Positions 7,461-63,713 of a stretch of DNA of 64,000 nt are shown here, piece by piece. The number at the start of each line of letters is the position of its first letter. The stretch's first letter is position 1. The notes beneath the pieces were generated by a model that saw only the letters and a program-made list of their open reading frames with translations, ran no database searches and had not been told where the DNA came from. A program made the translations under genes and the position numbers. The stretch comes from Octopus vulgaris (Eukaryota): NCBI GenBank assembly GCA_951406725.2, contig OX597822.1, forward strand, positions 41,168,001 through 41,232,000, given 5' to 3'.

Positions 7461-9110
7461 ATCCCTCACCACGAAGGACTGCAGGCCCTTCGACACTTTC
7501 TTGACCTCCGCTCCAATCCTGTACCTGACACCTCCACACTCATTCGTCTGGCCGAACTTGTCCTTACTCTGAACTGCTTCTCGTTCGCGGGCGAGTTCTA
7601 CCATCAGTTCTCGGGAGTGGCCATGGGAACGCGAATGGGCCCCAACTATGCGAACCTGTTCGTTGGCTATGTTGAGGCCCAAATATTCTCTAATTTCACT
7701 GGTCCCACTCCTGAACTATATGGTCGTTACATTGACGACATTATCGGTGCCACCTCACTCTCCCGTGAACATCTAGATTCCTTCCTCTCTTTCGTCCAAT
7801 CTTTCCATCCAGCCCTCCACTTCACTTCCACTATCTCCAACACCTCTGTCTCCTTCCTCGACATTTCGGTTAGCATTCTTCACTCCACTCTTACCACCTC
7901 CATTCACTACAAACACACAGACTCACACTCATACCTCAACTTCTCTTCCTCCCACCCAGAACACACCAAGCTTTCCATCCCCTATTCCCAATTCCTCCGC
8001 CTACGTAGGCTCTGTAGTGACGACCATGACTTTGAGACTCAGTCTCAACGTATGGCTCACCACTTCACCCTACGTGGATACCCCCTCACCACTATCCACA
8101 CCGCCCTTGCCAGAGCACGGTCCGTGGACCGTGTATCTGCTCTCTCTCCCCGAACCCGCCCTGTAGTCTACCGCCTCCCTTTTCCCCTCACTTACCACCC
8201 CACGACCCTACGTCACCAACGCACCATTCTTCGAGCTTTCCGTCATCTCCAGTCCGACCCGTCCACTTCACACCTCTTCCCTAACCGACCCCTCCCCTCT
8301 TTCAAACGAGCCCACAACCTTCGAGACCTTTTGGTCCATAGCTCCTTCCCTGACCCTACCTCCCAACCCGGCTCGTTCCCCTGCTCCCGCCCACGTTGCC
8401 GCACTTGCCCATACCTCTCCAACACCACCCTCCTCACTAGCACCCATCATCGACCCTATCCCATCATCCACTCCTTCACCTGCACCTCCAGCAATATTAT
8501 CTATTGCGTCTCTTGCTCTCTCTGCCATTCCTTGTACATCGGACAAACGGGACGCCGCTTGGCTGACCGGTTCGCGGAACACCTTCGTGACATCCACCTT
8601 GCGAACGACACACCGGTTTCTCGCCATTTCCGCTCCACTGGTCACTCCTTGCAACACCTATCTGTGTTCGGTTTGTCCTTACACAGAGGCCATCCGGATT
8701 CCCGTTTGCGCCGTGAACAGGAATTAATCTTCTCTCTTCGCTCTTATACGCCATTTGGTCTCAACTCTCCCCCTCCTCATCTAACCCCCTCTCCCCCTCC
8801 TCACCTACCTTTCCCCCCGACCCCTACTTCTTCAGTCCTTCATCCTTTCACCCCTACTCCCCTTCCCTTCTTCCCTCTTTCTCCCTCCCTCCTTCCCTCT
8901 TCCCCTTCCCTCTGCTCCCTCACTCCCCTTCTCTCTCCCCCTCTCCCTCTTTCCTCCTTCCTCCTCCCCCTCCCCTCCCCTCCCCCTCCTCTATCTCCCT
9001 TCCCCCTCCCCCCTCATCAACCCCCCTCTTCTCCTCTCTCCACACTACACCACACGACTTTACACATCACATCATATATGATGTGCCATACTAATACATA
9101 CACCAACTAA
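7461..9110 (+). CDS. Partial PLE reverse transcriptase plus GIY-YIG endonuclease (no start codon; conserved part ends at about 8770)
   Basis: Open in one frame from 7461: [39 protein letters not shown], a Cys linker [46 protein letters not shown] and FGLN. The first RT aspartate motif is lost by 5' truncation. The Pro-rich tail after FGLNS is low-complexity read-through. Confidence 0.88.
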
Positions 9111-9465
9111 TACATACCAATACATACTAATACATACTAATACATACTAATACATACACCAACCCTATACATACACACGTCCAGACCTCTCATACGCACT
9201 AATACTCTCTCATACACACACACCCTTATACATATTAATACGTACTAATACATACTAATACATACTAATACATACACCAACCCTATACATACACACGTCC
9301 AGACCTCTCATACGCACTAATACTCTCTCATACACACACACACACACACTCTTATACATACTAATACATACTAATACATACACCAACCCTATACATACAC
9401 ACGTCCAGACCTTCATACGCACTAATACTCTCTCATACACACACACACACACACACACACCCTTA
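9088..9465 (+). repeat. Minisatellites in the PLE 3' region
   Basis: CATACTAATA 10-mers interleaved with three copies of CATACACCAACCCTATACATACACACGTCCAGACC...CATACGCACTAATACTCTCTCATACAC. Confidence 0.85.
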
Positions 9466-9639
9466 TGTTGGAGCTGGTCACTCAACCCTATTATCAACCC
9501 TATTATCTCCCCTAATTTCGCTCTCGCGTCTCATGTTTGATCTTTGACTTCTGGCCGAAATCAGATCGCCATGTTGGTTCGTTAGTTACTGCACGCATTT
9601 TTTTCTCTCCTTCTTTCTGTGTTTTTTTCTCTCTGTGTA

Positions 9640-9677
9640 TCTTTCTGTTGAAGAGCGTAGGCTCGAAACGTTAAAGA
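9640..9677 (+). ncRNA. Minimal PLE-type hammerhead-like motif with a variant core
   Basis: TCTTT-CTGTTGA-A-GAGC-GTAG-GCTC-GAAA-C-GTT-AAAGA. Stem I is TCTTT/AAAGA, stem II is GAGC/GCTC, and stem III has no loop, so it would need a dimer. The core is CUGUUGA. Confidence 0.6.
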
Positions 9678-9875
9678 CTTGTTTTATTTATATTTCCTGA
9701 GCGCCATACTAATACAATTGTTTGTTTGTTTTCCACCTGCCTTCGTCTTTTGTCTATTTTCATAAAGCTTCCCGTTATATATATATATATATATATAACT
9801 CGCTCTGATACTGAGTTGAGTTGGTGCCTTCTAGTATCTCAAAATTCAATATATAATCACTTATGATTATAGTAT

Positions 9876-9975
9876 TCTACGCTGAAGAGAAAAGAAGTTT
9901 GGGTAACGTAGAATTATTTAATATTTAATTCTCATGCTTTCCTAAAAACTTGATTTCGAAACGTGCGTCCGTAGA
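9876..9975 (+). ncRNA. Type I hammerhead ribozyme, copy 1
   Basis: TCTACG-CTGAAGA-GAAA[long stem II]TTTC-GAAA-C-GTGC-G-TC-CGTAGA. Canonical CUGANGA/GAAA core, 6-bp stem I, GUC triplet, predicted cut after 9969. Confidence 0.82.
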
Positions 9976-10471
9976 TAACTTAAAATTGTATGATAGATTG
10001 CCGTCAATTCATTCTCTCTTACCTGTTTGTGTCTGCCTTCCAATTGCTGTGTTTTTTACTGAGATCTCCCTTTTTAGTAGAAGAAATAGCTATAACTCTT
10101 TGACTGCTATTTCTAAATTCGGTCTGTGGTAAGGCAATTCGTTGCTAAACCCTTTATTGCTTAGTATTACTTAAATTTTCCTCGAATGAGGCTTTTACAT
10201 GCCGAAGACTACTTGGTGTAATTGATAATTATTCCAAATTAATTAATTTCACCCTTCATTATTACGGATAACCATATTTTATCTCAGTGGATGACCATAG
10301 CATCTTGTTTTGGCTACACGCGGGTGGGAAGGGGCTGGTGACACAATCCTTTCATTCACACGTTGAGTTTGGTGATACTAGTTGCGGATTCTAGCTCGCT
10401 CTGATACTGAGTTGAGTTGGTGCCTTCTAGTATCTCAAAATTCAATATATAATCACTTATGATTATAGTAT

Positions 10472-10571
10472 TCTACGCTGAAGAGAAAAGAAGTTTGGGT
10501 AACGTAGAATTATTTAATATTTAATTCTCATGCTTTCCTAAAAACTTGATTTCGAAACGTGCGTCCGTAGA
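10472..10571 (+). ncRNA. Type I hammerhead ribozyme, copy 2
   Basis: Same sequence as 9876-9975, with a predicted cut after 10565. Confidence 0.82.
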
Positions 10572-10853
10572 TAACTTAAAATTGTATGATAGATTGCCGT
10601 CAATTCATTCTCTCTTACCTGTTTGTGTCTGCCTTCCAATTGCTGTGTTTTTTACTGAGATCTCCCTTTTTAGTAGAAGAAATAGCTATAACTCTTTGAC
10701 TGCTATTTCTAAATTCGGTCTGTGGTAAGGCAATTCGTTGCTAAACCCTTTATTGCTTAGTATTACTTAAATTTTCCTCGAATGAGGCTTTTACATGCCG
10801 AAGACTACTTGGTGTAATTGATAATTATTCCAAATTAATTAATTTCACCCTTC

Positions 10854-10927
<74 letters not shown>

Positions 10928-28688: not shown

Positions 28689-29857
28689 ATTTCTTTATTG
28701 GCCACGCAGGGCTAAACACAGAAAGGACAAAATACAAAGTAGAGCTTTCCTTTTTTGGAAGAAGAGAAGGGGGTAAAAAAGGGGGGGGGGCGGCGAATTC
28801 CGATCGTGAAAAAAAAAGGCGGGGAATTCCGATCAAAAGGGATCGCGAAAGAAAAAGTGGGGCCGATCAATACGGATACAGAAATGTCAATGTAAAAAGG
28901 GAAAACAGATTAGGTTTGTCCGTGGATAGAAAAGCCTACGAAAAAGACCACGGGAACCTTGGGCAATTGTGTCATGCAAAAAGAAAACACATTACAGTAA
29001 GTGGGTCTCTTTTTTCCTTTCGTTTTTTTTTTTTTCTTTTCGTTCATAGGATTATGCTCAAGCTGGCTCCGCCATTCACACGTGCCATCCTTGCAACATT
29101 CACCCATCTTTTTTTGAAACATTCACTAGATAAAACTTCTCTCTCTACTTTCACCTTCCTCTTCAAGTGATACTTGAAGAAGTTGATGAGAGATTGACCA
29201 GAGAGGAAACTGTTTCTCTCTAGGCCTTTCAGACGCGTCCACCATACACATTCTTTCGCTATAGCCACAAGTACGATGAAAATGGCTCTTCCTTCCCGTT
29301 TGAAGGAAGGAGGCGCAACAATATAAACCGACTCGTCCCACACGCGATAACAGTCGTTCGACATAGACCAACAGGTTGGAAATAGTTGGACACTGTACGA
29401 GTGCGTGCAGGACAGTTTCGTCGCTCTGACCGCATCTCGGACAGGTCGGCCCCGTGTTTCTCGATCCATGCCTGTAGAGCTTATCCCAAACGAGTAGCGC
29501 TTCTCGATAGCACTGCCAGGCCAGGAATCTCTGGAAGTTGTCCATAGGTCCCGGCCCGAAAGTCGTCTTGAACAGGCGGGTCAGGTATTCCTCGTCGACG
29601 CCCAGGTTCGCCCCGAGATCGTCGTCGTACCTCCCCTCCACTAATCTCCTATAGAATGCTTTGGTTGTGTTGAAGTCGCTCAAGGTCGACCCGGGACGGC
29701 ATAGTTGCTTGAGAGGAACGCGACACCAGCAGTGCCACTCGCCCTTCCTCGGCCTCTTTTTGATCCACGACTGCAGTTCGGTCATGGAGACGAGCTGCGG
29801 GAAAGTGCGCCTCACAAACGGTGACCATACCTGTTCACCGTCGTCTACGTAGAGCCG

Positions 29858-29858
<1 letters not shown>
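28689..29858 (-). mobile_element. L1/Tx1-clade LINE, 5'-truncated 3' end, flanked by (GATA)n
   Basis: Minus-strand ORF2 C-terminus with FQRFLAWQCYREALLVWDKL and a zinc knuckle CPRCGQSDETVLHALVQC (several frameshifts). A T/C-rich 3' UTR follows and ends AATAAAGAAATC then (TAGC/TATC)n. Confidence 0.85.
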
Positions 29859-29942
<84 letters not shown>

Positions 29943-30169
29943 AAGACAAAGACGAAAAGATGATGGTTGATGTCATCTGCGACTAGCGGTTCCGACAGAC
30001 ACCATGCCATACTCCTAATCTCTGCATCAGAATAATTATCCATTCCACCCAAAACTAATTACTGAGGTAATCTGCTCAGAGACACTATGTTGATGATAAA
30101 AAGACAACAGAACTATTGTTAAGTTAACGAGTATTAACAAATCTAATTAGCAATATATAAACTGGTATT

Positions 30170-30340: not shown

Positions 30341-30436
30341 TTATTCTATTTTTCTTTTCGTCTACTCTAGGCACAAGGCCCGAAATTTTAGGGGAGCGGG
30401 GCAAGTCGATTAGATCAACCCCAGTACGCAACTGGT

Positions 30437-30705
30437 ATAATATTTAAATAATTGATGTTACTCCTATGATATTTAATGGATTTACGTTACTCCTATAACT
30501 TTTAAAGGATTGATGTTACTCCTATAACTTTTAAAGGATTGATGTTACTCCTATAATATTTAAATGACTGATGTTACTCCTATAACTTTTAAACGATTGA
30601 TGTTACTCCTATAATATTTAAATGATTGATGTTACTCCTATAATTTTTAAAGGAGTTATGTTACTTCTATAACATTTAAAGGATTTATGTTACTCCTATG
30701 ATAAT
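30437..30705 (+). repeat. Minisatellite with a unit of about 29-30 bp, about 9 copies
   Basis: Head-to-tail TTGATGTTACTCCTATAA(C/T)(T/A)TTTAAA(G/T)GA units with no spacers. Confidence 0.92.
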
Positions 30706-37964: not shown

Positions 37965-38540
37965 ACTTCAAATTTCGGTACAAGGCCAGCAACTTAGGGG
38001 AAGTGGTAAGCCGATTATAACGACCCCGGAGATTAAAGGCAACGTCGACCTCAGTGGATTTTGAACTAACAACATTAAGACGGACGAAATGACGCTAAGT
38101 AGTTTGTCCGGCATGCTAAGGGTTCTGCCTGCTCGCCAATTTAGAGTTTTAAATATTCTTTTTTACTCTAGGCACAAGGCCCTTAATTTTTGAGGAGGTG
38201 GGGCCAGTCGATTAGATCGACCCCGGAGGGTAAAAGGCAAAGTCGACCTCAGTAGATTTTGAACTCACAACTTTAAGACGGAGAAATGACGCTAAGCATT
38301 TTGTCCGAAATAATAAGGATTCTGCCTGCTCGCCACTTTAGGATGTTAAATATTCTTTTTTACTCTAGGCAAAAGGCCCTTAATTTTTGAGAAGGGGGCC
38401 AGTCGATTAGATCGACCCCGGAGAATAAAAGGCAAAGTCGACCTCAGTAGATTTTGAACTCACAACTTTAAGACGGACGAAGTGCCGGTAAGCAGTTTGT
38501 CCGGTATGCTAAGGATTCTGCCAGCTCGGCGCCTTAACGA
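37965..38540 (-). mobile_element. Three tandem SINE family C copies, about 185-bp period
   Basis: CAAGGCC...TCGACCCCGGAG...AAAGGCAA.GTCGACCTCAGT.GATTTTGAACT...TTCTGCC.GCTCG occurs three times. Confidence 0.85.
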
Positions 38541-55596: not shown

Positions 55597-55970
55597 TTAG
55601 TTTGAAGAATAGGAGAAGAAATTTCTTTTGGTGGGGCATGAAGAAATCAACTTTAATGTAAATTCTAATAACTTAAACGGTTGATTATGTTGAATTTTGC
55701 AAACCCTACGCTTGTTGCCAATAATGTAAACTGGGGCGGGTTTTATAACAAACCATTTAAATTTATACTTATCTCCTTCATTCAAGCTCCAGATGTATTT
55801 TGAAAGTCCTGATGCAGATCTTTTGCGCACATATCTGAATGCGTGCACACCCTGAGAGTACCTGGATTTAAATGAGCACCCCGCAGGGCCGATATACCAC
55901 TTTCTGTCATTGTTGTAGCCATAGGTGGAAACTTTAGCACGGTAAACGATATATATTCGAAGGTATTTAT
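55597..55970 (-). pseudogene. Decayed PLE GIY-YIG endonuclease domain (possibly Naiad-like)
   Basis: IVYRAKV...WYIG...FKSRY...LSKYIWSL...FKWFVIKPAPVY...ISSCPTKRNF. The clade assignment is tentative. Confidence 0.7.
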
Positions 55971-56397
55971 CATATACAGTCCTGACCAAAAGTGTAGAAC
56001 AATTTTAAAAAAATTAAAATTGTTACGCCCAATATACGTTCCGACCAAATATAACTTTGGGCATTTAATATAAAAATTTCAGATTTATGCTCTTTTACTT
56101 GGTTCAGTCATTTAGCAAATCGACCGCTGGGCTTATTCTTTGTAAGCCTAGTACTTATTCTATCGGTCTCTTTTGCCGAACCGCTAAGTTACAGGGACAT
56201 AAACACACCAGCATCGGCATAGACTCCACTGCTCAACTGGTACTTAATTTAGCGATCTCAAAAGGATAAAAGTAAAGCCGACCTGGACGAATTTCGAACT
56301 CAGAAAATAAAATAAAGACACACGAAATACCGGTAAGCGTTATGTCCAGCCTGCTAACGATTCTGTCAGTTCACCGCCTCGTATATACGTATACACA

Positions 56398-56493: not shown

Positions 56494-56546
56494 TTTGTTT
56501 TCCACCTGCCTTCGTCTTTTGTCTATTTTCATAAAGCTTCCCGTTA
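56494..56546 (+). mobile_element. Extreme 3' terminus of the Neptune-type PLE
   Basis: TTTGTTTTCCACCTGCCTTCGTCTTTTGTCTATTTTCATAAAGCTTCCCGTTA matches 9725-9777, with (TA) on both sides. Confidence 0.85.
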
Positions 56547-56569
56547 TATATATATATATATATATACTA

Positions 56570-58759: not shown

Positions 58760-60452
58760 ATGCCCGGACACTGAACAAGTGCATGCAGGACGGTTTCGTT
58801 GCTCTATGAGCACCTCGGACAAGCCCGTCTGACAGTACATCCGTTCCTGTACTGCTTATCACGAACCGGTAGCGCCCTCTGGTAGCACTGCCAGGCCAAA
58901 GACATCTGGAAATTATCCATAATAGTCCCCAACGGGAAAGTCCTCCGGAGTAGACTAACCAGTTCGTCTTGTCGACACCTAGGGCATCGTCGCATTTTCC
59001 CGCTACTAATCCTCTGTATATAGCTAAAGTGGAACATCCACCGATCCTATTGCCCGACTTGTAGAGGACAGTGAGCACCTGACGGCATTCTAAGTGCCAG
59101 ACGCCCAATCTCGGCCTATCTTTTACCCAAGACTGCAGTTCCGTCAAAGAGACGAGCTGCGGAAAGGCGTGTCGCACAAATGGAGCCCACACACGTTTAC
59201 CTTCAAGAAATTGTTGCAGGTAGCGCAACCTGAATGCGTGCCTGCACATCAAAAGCCACGGCATGCCTAAGCCGCCACACAGAGGGAGTTGCAGCAGACC
59301 AACCGCCTAACCATTGGAACGCGTCCCTTTTACAAGAATATAAACAGGATACGCTCCAATCTAATCAAGCAGTAACTGGGACAAGGCTCGACGGTCAGAT
59401 GATAAATAATGAAAGGGGCGATGTAGGTATTCTCCACCTCTGCCCGACCTTTCAGGGACAACTTCCTTTCTGCCCATTTCTGGGTAAGACAGGCCACTCT
59501 GTTCGTCACCTCTTCCCAATTCTTATCCACCTGGAGGTCAGGGCCGGACCAGACCCCGAGTAGTTTCACAGGTCCGTCAGTCCAGCATCCAACGGCATTG
59601 ATCTGAATCTCCAGGTGCTCAGTCGCAATCTCAGCGACTTGTCAGCGTTGATTTTAGCCCCTGCTACTGATTCATATTCCCTTACAATGGAGCCGACCGT
59701 CTCCTGTTCGGAGGCGTCCAACACAATGACGGTGAGGTTGTCCGAGTACGTCGACACTGTTCTCTCGAGTCCAATTTCGAAAGGGATGCCTCTTAACTAT
59801 TCCAACACATACAGTAGAGGTGACAGCGGACAGCCCTGACGGACCGAATGTGCGATACTAAACGGTTCTGATAGGTGACCATTTACTTTGACAACCGAGC
59901 AGGTGCCGCTGTGCATTGCAGCAATCCAGCTTCTGAAAACGGGTCCGAAACCGACCTTTCTAACAATGGCTTCCAAGTAGCGGTGCTCGATCCTATCGAA
60001 AGTTTTCGACTGATCTAAATTGATCAGCGCCCCACCGAAGCCAGCTTTAGTCTTAGCCCTCTCTACGATCTATCGCATAAGGTGGAGGTTGTGGATAGAT
60101 TAGCTCTGGATTGCGCACGTTTGTCCTCCCCGATCAGACTACCAACGACAAGCACCAACCTTTTCGTCAACAACTTGGGCAAAATAGTAAACTCTGGGTT
60201 TAGCAGAGTTATGGGCCAAAAATTCCCTAGTGCGTTCCCGTTGTTAGCGTCGTTTCTCCACAGTGTTACCACATCTTGGCTAACAGCACAAGGGATTCTC
60301 CCGTTCTGCTGCCAGTTTCTGTAGACAGACGTCTGCCAAGAGGCTGCCAAACAAATCTTGCATGAAATCATAGAATTTGTATGGTAGTCCATCCAGACCG
60401 GGCGATTTGCGATTTGTGCAATTGCTCATCGCCTCCCGTATTTCAGTGGATG
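58760..60452 (-). mobile_element. L1/Tx1-clade LINE ORF2 pseudogene (RT plus zinc knuckle)
   Basis: Broken minus frames give KSPGLDGLPYEFY-like sequence, NFWPITLLN, LINLDQSKTFDR, VRQGCPLSPLLY, YSDN (decayed YADD), KLSLKGRAEV, LAWQCYQRALPVRDK and CPRC. It is homologous to 28689-29858. Confidence 0.9.
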
Positions 60453-62276: not shown

Positions 62277-62330
<54 letters not shown>

Positions 62331-62519
62331 CATTTTATAAAGGGCTTAGTAAAATAAATTACTTTGCCACATACTGAACTCATTAGAAATAGCAGCCCAA
62401 AAAATTTTTTTAGCCAAGTTCTAATACTTAAAGAAAATTTCTCTCAGATAGTGCTTACTCAAAATAGCCCACGAAGGTATGGGGGTAAAAACATTAAAAA
62501 ATCACAAGTGCAAAGGTTA

Positions 62520-62581
62520 TTTGAGAACGTACGTTTCTAGATCAGCCAAATACAATTCGACATTTCTTTCGTCAGCTCAAA
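62520..62581 (-). ncRNA. Type I hammerhead-like ribozyme, antisense copy
   Basis: Reverse complement of 62761-62822. Confidence 0.7.
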
Positions 62582-62760
62582 ATTCCTTAATTCGGATTTG
62601 TAAACACTGAAAGTAGGAGCATACCCTTTTGGCGACTTTTCACCTCCGAAGATCCGTTCAGACTAACAGTGCCAACAAATTCAAAATATGAATCGGAGGT
62701 GAAAAGTCGCCAAAAGGGTATGCTCCTACTTTCAGTGTTTACAAATCCGAATTAAGGAAT

Positions 62761-62822
62761 TTTGAGCTGACGAAAGAAATGTCGAATTGTATTTGGCTGA
62801 TCTAGAAACGTACGTTCTCAAA
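62761..62822 (+). ncRNA. Type I hammerhead-like ribozyme, copy 1
   Basis: TTTGAG-CTGACGA-A-AGA..GTCGAAT-TGT-ATTTGGC..TCT-A-GAAA-C-GTAC-G-TT-CTCAAA. 6-bp stem I, palindromic stem III loop, GUU triplet, predicted cut after 62816. There is an A.A mismatch at the base of stem II. Confidence 0.72.
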
Positions 62823-63325
62823 TAACCTTTGCACTTGTGATTTTTTAATGTTTTTACCCCCATATCTTCGTGGGCTATTTTGAGTAAGCACTATCTGAGA
62901 GAAATTTTCTTTAAGTATTAGAATTTGGCTAAAAAAAATTTTTGGGCTGCTATTTCTAATGAGTTCAGTATGTGGCAAAGTAATTTATTTTACTAAGCCC
63001 TTTATAAAATGTAATATTTTGAATTCGCCTTAAATGGTCCCTTTACATACTGAATACTTGGTGAAATTGATTAATAATTAATTAATTTTACCCTCAATTG
63101 TTGAAATTATAATTCATTTCTCTCTGTTTAATGCTTCGGTTTTCACCGATAAAATTATGGTGTTTGCTAGGTTAGCCCACGTGGGTGGAAAGGGGAGGGC
63201 AGAAATTCTTCGCTTGCATATTTTGAATTTGTTGGCACTGTTAGTCTGAACGGATCTTCGGAGGTGAAAAGTCGCCAAAAGGGTATGCTCCTACTTTCAG
63301 TGTTTACAAATCCGAATTAAGGAAT

Positions 63326-63387
63326 TTTGAGCTGACGAAAGAAATGTCGAATTGTATTTGGCTGATCTAGAAACGTACGTTCTCAAA
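63326..63387 (+). ncRNA. Type I hammerhead-like ribozyme, copy 2
   Basis: Same sequence as 62761-62822, with a predicted cut after 63381. Confidence 0.72.
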
Positions 63388-63668
63388 TAACCTTTGCACT
63401 TGTGATTTTTTAATGTTTTTACCCCCATACCTTCGTGGGCTATTTTGAGTAAGCACTATCTGAGAGAAATTTTCTTTAAGTATTAGAATTTGGCTAAAAA
63501 AATTTTTTTGGCTGCTATTTCTAATGAGTTCAGTATGTGGCAAAGTAATTTATTTTACTAAGCCCTTTATAAAATGTAATATTTTGAATTCGCTTTAAAT
63601 GGTCCCTTTACATACTGAATACTTGGTGAAATTGAGTAATAGTTAATTAATTTTTCCCTCAATGGTTG

Positions 63669-63713
<45 letters not shown>

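Follow-up and report, generated by a model that had tools for sequence, protein, structure and literature searches.

Retrozymes have been proposed to be non-autonomous derivatives of Penelope elements (PMC7229834; 10.64898/2026.07.22.740005). The Penelope reverse transcriptase starts at two internal sites, the sequence between them forming the genomic tail; both strands of the target are nicked and extended, and a dimer of the enzyme is predicted (PMC11167929). Penelope insertions often have a 30-40-bp tail at one end only and include an inverted 5'-truncated copy, and members of the Hydra clade insert in (TA)n (PMC8557442). In the anole element PAc, start sites of reverse transcription mapped in vitro are alike on both strands (PMC11167929). 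Open questions named in these papers are the way in which animal retrozymes borrow an enzyme and the origin of the Penelope tail and inverted ends (10.64898/2026.07.22.740005; PMC8557442; PMC11167929).

We analysed a 64,000-nucleotide stretch of Octopus vulgaris DNA (GenBank assembly GCA_951406725.2, contig OX597822.1, positions 41,168,001 to 41,232,000, forward strand), referred to below as the window, which contains two insertions, E1 and E2. We class both as non-LTR retrozymes that leave a Penelope footprint and form a variant marked by long units, a ~95-nt tail and, at the start sites, a conserved fold. Our main reading, to which we assign a probability of about 0.7, is that E1 and E2 represent two related non-coding hammerhead families with a shared 170-nt core, and that the predicted multi-helix RNA fold of this core is the likely signal for recruiting a Penelope-type reverse transcriptase/endonuclease and placing its two start points. 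The insertions are laid out as follows.

9799..10857, plus strand: E1 insertion, a single arm of 1.78 units of a 596-nt non-coding monomer, stopping at site B and flanked on both sides by (TA)n.
62693..63676, plus strand: E2 direct arm, 1.74 units of a 565-nt monomer, with its outer end at site B, followed by (TA)n.
62325..62690, minus strand: E2 inverted arm, 0.65 unit, with its outer end at site A, followed by (TA)n.

E2 is an AB insertion and E1 a single B arm, A and B being two fixed stop sites in the monomer. The internal repeat of E1 is perfect, with 460 of 460 bases matching at period 596, and its coding content is confined to short chance frames. Neither insertion has protein-coding sequence, an LTR, a PBS or a PPT, and their arms continue into further units, not into ORFs.

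The six blocks that the preliminary description of this DNA had listed as common to E1 and E2 were all found in place, in identical order, and within the window the long shared blocks are confined to these two elements. The kinship it claimed for the monomers also held beyond shuffled controls: their local alignment scores 88, against a mean of 22.8 and a maximum of 36 in dinucleotide shuffles (0/1000), a likeness that supports common descent. The signal is concentrated in the core (10104-10260 versus 62947-63100, z = 12.9, 0/1000 shuffles); z is 3.6 in the post-core region (2/1000), 2.9 between the G-rich box and the next ribozyme (1/1000), 2.1 in the ribozyme part (34/1000) and 0.4 in the stretch from the ribozyme to block 1. 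Identity is 70.9% from block 1 to P5, 56.2% over the whole monomer and 47-53% in the remaining regions. The two elements had further been given the same 3' end, which is correct for both plus-strand arms, stopping past the ACCCT block and entering (TA)n, but not for the inverted E2 arm, which ends ~95 nt earlier, at site A.

Each unit carries a hammerhead motif.

9877..9974, plus strand: E1 type I hammerhead motif, with helix I CTACG/CGTAG, core CTGAAGA at 9882, a long helix II and GAAAC-GTGC-GTC; predicted cut after 9969; second copy at +596.
62760..62822, plus strand: E2 type I hammerhead motif, with helix I TTTTGAG/CTCAAA, core CTGACGA and GAAAC-GTAC-GTT; predicted cut after 62816; second copy at +565.

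The core and helices of the type I motif are present in every unit, in both window elements and in genome copies, arranged as helix I, CUGAnGA, long helix II, GAAAC, helix III (2 bp, closed by a palindromic loop) and finally GUC in E1 or GUU in E2. The helix III loop varies (GTAC, GTGC, GTAAC, GTTGAC and others), its most frequent forms still being self-complementary. Co-folding two copies as a double hammerhead, the form described for short-helix-III motifs (PMC4209133), gave -49.8 versus 2 x -20.2 for E1 and -29.6 versus 2 x -10.9 for E2. Among E1 variants, helix II carries GAGA/TCTC, GAAA/TTTC or GGAA/TTCC. The ribozyme stems had been described as differing completely while keeping their pairing; helix I and distal helix II do differ, but helix III (GAAAC-GTRC-GT) is common to both families, older E1 variants have GAGA/TCTC or AAGA/TCTC at the helix II base, near the AAGA/TCTA of E2, and in most E2 copies pairing at that base is broken by an A-A mismatch. 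Rfam models gave no gathering-score match in the window, hammerheads included, and two sRNA matches on the minus strand (E 0.03-0.3) were taken as chance. The 5' ends of arms showed no pile-up at the predicted cut site (3/100 passages, p 0.12; 2/109, p 0.38).

The features of the shared core, with the two stop sites, are these.

10083..10113, plus strand: P1 hairpin, GAAATAG / CTATTTC, containing block CTGCTATTTCTAA; 93.1% paired, with no both-side change; missing from the RNAalifold consensus.
10118..10206, plus strand: P2 long-range helix, TTCGGT.TG / CATGCCGAA, surrounding P3, site A and P4; 98.1% paired, with G-C replaced by A-U in 7/23 rows.
10128..10151, plus strand: P3 hairpin, GGT..GCAA-loop-TTGC..ACC; one pair is C-G in 15 rows and U-A in 8, and U-A/C-G occurs at the outer stem.
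10152..10176, plus strand: site A, a UA-rich tract that follows P3 and in which short-end arms stop; monomer positions 345-380, mode 369 (10167); 56/101 E1 arms.
10215..10253, plus strand: P5 hairpin, GGTG.AATT / AATTTCACC; 91.7% paired.
10254..10277, plus strand: site B, a UA-rich tract that follows P5 and in which long-end arms stop; monomer positions 460-480, used by the window E1 at 10857; 33/101 E1 arms.
62916..63111, plus strand: the E2 conserved core P1-P5, with site A at ~63017 and site B at ~63111.

Sites A and B lie ~95 nt apart, each preceded by a helix base, 'ACCCT' and a UA-rich tract. We collected 101 distinct E1 and 103 distinct E2 arms from 200 loci, dropping arms at a locus edge or below 82% identity. 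Their 3' ends fall in zones A and B, which were drawn after the data were seen and occupy less than 10% of the unit, in 89/101 E1 and 92/103 E2 arms (181/204). Inner 5' ends are scattered, with 11 (E1) and 14 (E2) inside the zones, and 84 of the 204 arms (41 E1, 43 E2) exceed one unit, the longest reaching 6.2. The suggestion that an AT-rich block sets the start of reverse transcription gains support from these non-random genomic 3' ends, and can be refined from one start site to two.

The two sites are also combined in a regular way. There were 81 TA-bounded segments whose two sides both show a core end (68 AB, 6 AA, 3 BB, 4 B plus another end), of which two BB were dropped as paired nested passengers, leaving 68 AB, 6 AA, 1 BB and 4 B plus another end among 79 two-ended head-to-head segments. 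The AA/AB/BB counts of 6/68/1 compare with 21/37/16 expected under independent choice (chi-square p ~1e-12), in a test that covers segments with both ends classified and leaves aside 76 one-end-classified segments found under a looser TA rule. By sample, the AB share was 19/24 when loci were chosen by the full unit, 25/27 with the tail motif, which cannot miss BB, and 24/28 with the upstream motif, which favours A ends. Both arms of an insertion have subfamily variants in common.

Folding of the core points to a conserved RNA structure. From a 23-row alignment, RNAalifold independently predicted P2 (TTCRGTRTG with CATRCYGAA), the inner P3 hairpin and P5. In a 36-pair core structure, derived from the tested sequences themselves, 93.8% of 823 cells are paired across the 23 variants, compared with 38-53% in slid controls, the 23 rows being related to one another. 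The covariation score is 0.188, versus 0.136 in shuffles (0/500), and 26 cells are changed on both sides, versus 11 (0/500); two of the five structure measures do not rise above shuffles, namely pairs changed on both sides (6; 129/500) and further pair types (265/500). The clearest compensatory swaps split the E1 from the E2 side: G-C to A-U in P2 (12 versus 7 rows) and C-G to U-A in P3 (15 versus 8). Whole monomers fold with z of -4.95 and -4.99 (0/100 shuffles each) into predicted rods of like topology that are strongly self-paired, and conservation is highest around sites A and B. Where the preliminary description proposed selection on both fold and cis motifs, the covariation check agrees with selection on the fold, and the shared blocks are better read as complementary arms of one predicted, conserved RNA structure than as separate DNA motifs.

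The fixed ends could also arise solely from microhomology between a (TA)n primer and UA-rich patches, with the fold kept for RNA stability or circularisation and not for directing the enzyme. Such an origin would fit the E1 end sub-sites, which in each zone fall on UA steps (359-378 and 464-479), and the folding of the whole monomer as a rod, as in other retrozyme circles (PMC7229834), but we consider it unlikely: it predicts AA and BB segments at the chance level given above, far from the counts seen, other UA-rich patches (in the helix II loop and the pre-ribozyme stretch) are almost never ends, and conservation peaks near both sites.

E1 and E2 belong to a large superfamily. Exact matches to the tail motif number 3,342 genome-wide (2.8 Gb, ~30 large contigs; reversed control 1) and those to block 1 number 11,962 (reversed control 0). 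Further lineages were sampled from the first listed matches on one contig (C1), and these loci yielded many more, with the layout of E1 and E2. A tree of 23 cores has supported E1 and E2 clades, intermediate lineages that join E2, at least five other lineages and an unresolved backbone. Between 46 and 92% of the sampled E1 words were found in sequencing runs with six organism labels from nine studies, and contigs from five further organism labels cover part of the E1 unit. Private array variants, as one template per insertion would leave, were present in every unit of the array at 5/27 E1 and 10/18 E2 loci; variants in only some units were also common, and the template may have been a circle or a uniform multimer.

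An autonomous Penelope-like element carrying the same blocks, which the preliminary description suggested looking for, was sought in 200 core loci, 50 Hydra loci and 30 GIY-YIG loci, and none came to light. The E units contain no RT or GIY-YIG ORF, none is linked to them in the 200 loci, and the core has no match in the termini of the sampled autonomous families, which are a minority of those in the genome. In its absence among these loci, the connection to any particular enzyme is drawn from the shape of the insertions. Autonomous Penelope elements do co-occur with the E families: a Hydra-type family with open frames of up to ~720 aa, whose copies are 97-98% identical and which carries the Cx Cx5 C linker as in PMC8557442, and a GIY-YIG family with 781-aa frames.

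The Hydra-type family is young and very abundant (L092:4477-5953, minus strand; L201-L250), with 34,800 first-look candidates and a long microsatellite-rich 3' region. It has two ends ~70 nt apart, one short and one long in 8/10 two-strand loci as read by eye, and thereby obeys the rule of the E families, but it lacks their predicted fold. We rejected it as the partner, the small inverted E2-type insertion in its 3' region being a passenger that is absent from at least five loci (L219, L223, L225, L226, L230) and its own terminal repeat being different. A Hydra-type sub-lineage with this passenger has spread it. At L231:3090-3290 the Hydra terminal repeat and the E core have short words in common (TTAATTTTACTCT, CTGCTAT, TGTGGT..AACCC), perhaps by chance, with no profile match. 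Core matches near GIY-YIG frames, seen at 2/30 loci, were both nested insertions. The family with 781-aa frames (L297, L302, L305, L319, L320) ends at two sites ~33 nt apart before (TA)n. Other hammerhead repeat families that lack the E core occur at L238:7469-8004, L240:6623, L245:7103-7661 and L234:1380, one having a 535-nt period and an inverted arm.

In the window, positions 7464-9778 (plus strand) hold a 5'-truncated Penelope element, which we take to be Neptune-like, with an open 434-aa RT-thumb-GIY-YIG frame, a CxxxxCxxC linker and its own hammerhead motif at ~9645-9680. It is read as a separate insertion, ending at its own site before (TA)10 directly 5' of E1. Its last 55 bases recur as a 100% copy at 56494-56548, and Pfam returned no family for the 434-aa fragment. 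Elsewhere in the window are a weak Hydra-like endonuclease remnant (55714-56004, minus strand; tblastn E 4e-6), two related open frames resembling the C-terminal regions of LINEs (29046-30058 and 58760-59306, both minus strand), a 197-nt tandem of 2.6 copies (38012-38528) and a 29-nt minisatellite of 9.2 copies (30436-30703).

One might take E1 and E2 for the 5'-truncated ends (pseudo-LTRs) of an unsampled autonomous Penelope element, the monomer being its terminal repeat. The insertion footprint is like that of autonomous elements in this genome, and vertebrate retrozymes resemble pLTRs (10.64898/2026.07.22.740005); we nevertheless hold this origin to be very improbable, as arms that pass the ribozyme enter the preceding monomer, over up to 6.2 units, and at none of 200 loci does a Penelope ORF lead straight into the core, cases near an ORF being split off by (TA)n, on the other strand or nested passengers.

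Downstream of the core, both monomers contain a G-rich box.

10317..10334, plus strand: E1 G-rich box; predicted partner the pyrimidine tract at 10013-10031; isolated duplex not significant (73/500 shuffles).
63178..63195, plus strand: E2 G-rich box; predicted partner at 62857-62872; duplex of -29.9 kcal/mol, with 0/500 shuffles as low.

In both monomers the box is predicted to pair with a pyrimidine tract 40-60 nt past the predicted cut site, with a probability of ~1 at most positions. As an isolated duplex, this pairing is clear against shuffles in 2/9 variants (0/500), weak in one (24/500) and absent in six, and cognate partners average -22.7 versus -20.6 for those of other families. The evidence that the box pairs inside a predicted RNA rod is moderate. 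Since such pairing makes a promoter role unnecessary, the idea that the box is an internal promoter element finds no support here, though the box may have a double role at the DNA level. The CACG and G-rich run, seen again in several lineages, shows a possible likeness to E-box and GT-box motifs. That the shared blocks, this box foremost, are DNA promoter elements driving transcription of the next unit, in the manner of the pLTR promoter proposed for Penelope (PMC11167929), is nonetheless highly unlikely, given that core blocks change in complementary pairs, that pairing of the box is predicted in both monomers and that its spacing differs among lineages.

The (TA)n flanks were compared with empty sites at two insertions that lie within other repeats, of which copies without the insertion are readable. 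For L186:3209-3623, nine of ten distinct empty loci have ~4-9 TA units and one has ~18, versus 9 + 22 at the filled site; for L182:3275-3902, one empty paralogue has ~4 units, versus ~24 + 27 at the filled site. In these two cases filled-site TA exceeds a target duplication, so TA grows at or after insertion, by enzyme addition or later slippage. A search for the empty site of L024 in other DNA runs gave no joint across the insertion among the matches listed, both flanks being repetitive; the flank of L040, tried for the same purpose, proved to be the end of another TA-tailed repeat, with no empty site. At L147:1474-2145 an E1-type arm, flanked by 6 TA units at one end and 39 at the other, lies within the decayed remains of a Hydra-like coding region. 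The available portion of PMC9977147 makes no mention of an added microsatellite.

A more daring extension, which we offer tentatively and regard as doubtful, is that the core is a portable two-part cassette: its two similar helix-ACCCU-UA modules would load both subunits of a single Penelope dimer onto a single RNA circle, providing one start site per DNA strand, and the telomerase-related enzyme would stutter on the UA tract, writing new (TA)n at both ends of the insertion. The TA growth seen in the two flank comparisons is used for this extension only. If this is true, cassette repeats make TA microsatellites and do not merely land there, and the cassette would be enough to turn any RNA into a passenger.

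For the main reading, a core that recruits the enzyme and sets its two start points, common descent and membership of a large superfamily are shown, and the features seen directly are the fixed outer ends A and B, the scattered inner ends, arms of more than one unit, head-to-head A+B insertions and (TA)n flanks; the fold, the rod-like monomer and ribozymes working as dimers are predicted from models. We propose that tandem copies would be transcribed and that the ribozymes would cut the RNA to unit length, after which it would probably be circularised; alternatively, uncut multimer could serve as template. A dimeric Penelope enzyme would nick both strands of self-complementary (TA)n, and each nicked 3' end would pair with one of the two UA-rich tracts behind a helix base and 'ACCCU'. 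The two cDNAs would extend 5'-ward beyond the ribozyme site, halt at random and be joined head to head, or one arm alone would be kept; the A-to-B stretch would correspond to the Penelope tail. The enzyme most likely comes from a (TA)n-targeting clade such as Hydra, which is a best guess only, because several clades in the genome end in (TA)n. The absence of a strand difference in the anole start sites means that the A+B rule is not given by that system alone.

The element class and the two-site idea are already known, and the gain is a sharper, testable model and not a new system. The superfamily amounts to a natural mutagenesis series: its 170-nt fold is defined, both start sites are mapped, and the one-A-one-B rule, which is near-strict, could be put to the test with the in vitro assay that exists for Penelope.

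A literature search, with most subscription papers and bioRxiv supplements outside its scope, found no octopus retrozyme or conserved fold at reverse transcription starts. Of the published systems, metazoan non-LTR retrozymes (Cervera and de la Pena 2020, PMC7229834; Li, Clavereau, Pollet, 10.64898/2026.07.22.740005) share with E1 and E2 the non-coding tandem units with one type I hammerhead each, low GC, a self-paired monomer, dispersed high-copy families and co-occurring Penelope elements. Unit length differs, at 565-596 nt in E1 and E2 versus ~170-400 nt in invertebrate retrozymes and a vertebrate consensus of 51-972 bp (same sources). Expression and circles have been demonstrated for the known retrozymes, whereas E1 and E2 are known here from DNA sequence; the conserved start-site fold, fixed ends and inverted two-arm insertions are features of E1 and E2 that the available parts of these two reports do not describe.

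Penelope short-helix-III hammerheads (Cervera and de la Pena 2014, PMC4209133) are, like those of E1 and E2, of type I, with a 2-bp helix III, a palindromic loop and predicted dimeric activity. Helix II is far longer in E1 (~70 nt) and E2 (30), and E2 differs further in the A-A mismatch at the helix II base and the GUU triplet. Hydra-clade Penelope-like elements (Craig et al. 2021, PMC8557442) resemble E1 and E2 in (TA)n insertion, hammerheads, an inverted 5'-truncated arm and a tail that is often one-ended, but they encode RT and GIY-YIG. Neither of the exact core motifs ctgctatttcta and ttaattttaccct occurs in the available supplement text of that paper, and the Hydra-type family in this genome has a terminal repeat without a match to the E core.

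The anole Poseidon element PAc (Frangieh et al. 2024, PMC11167929) has, like E1 and E2, two internal start sites 3' of the ribozyme, an AT-rich target and a tail between the sites, with both strands primed. At ~95 nt, the tail of E1 and E2 is ~3 times longer than the 30-40 nt of PAc. Unlike that of PAc, it lies in non-coding RNA, on a predicted covarying multi-helix fold, and the two arms use different sites, whereas PAc has no strand difference in vitro.
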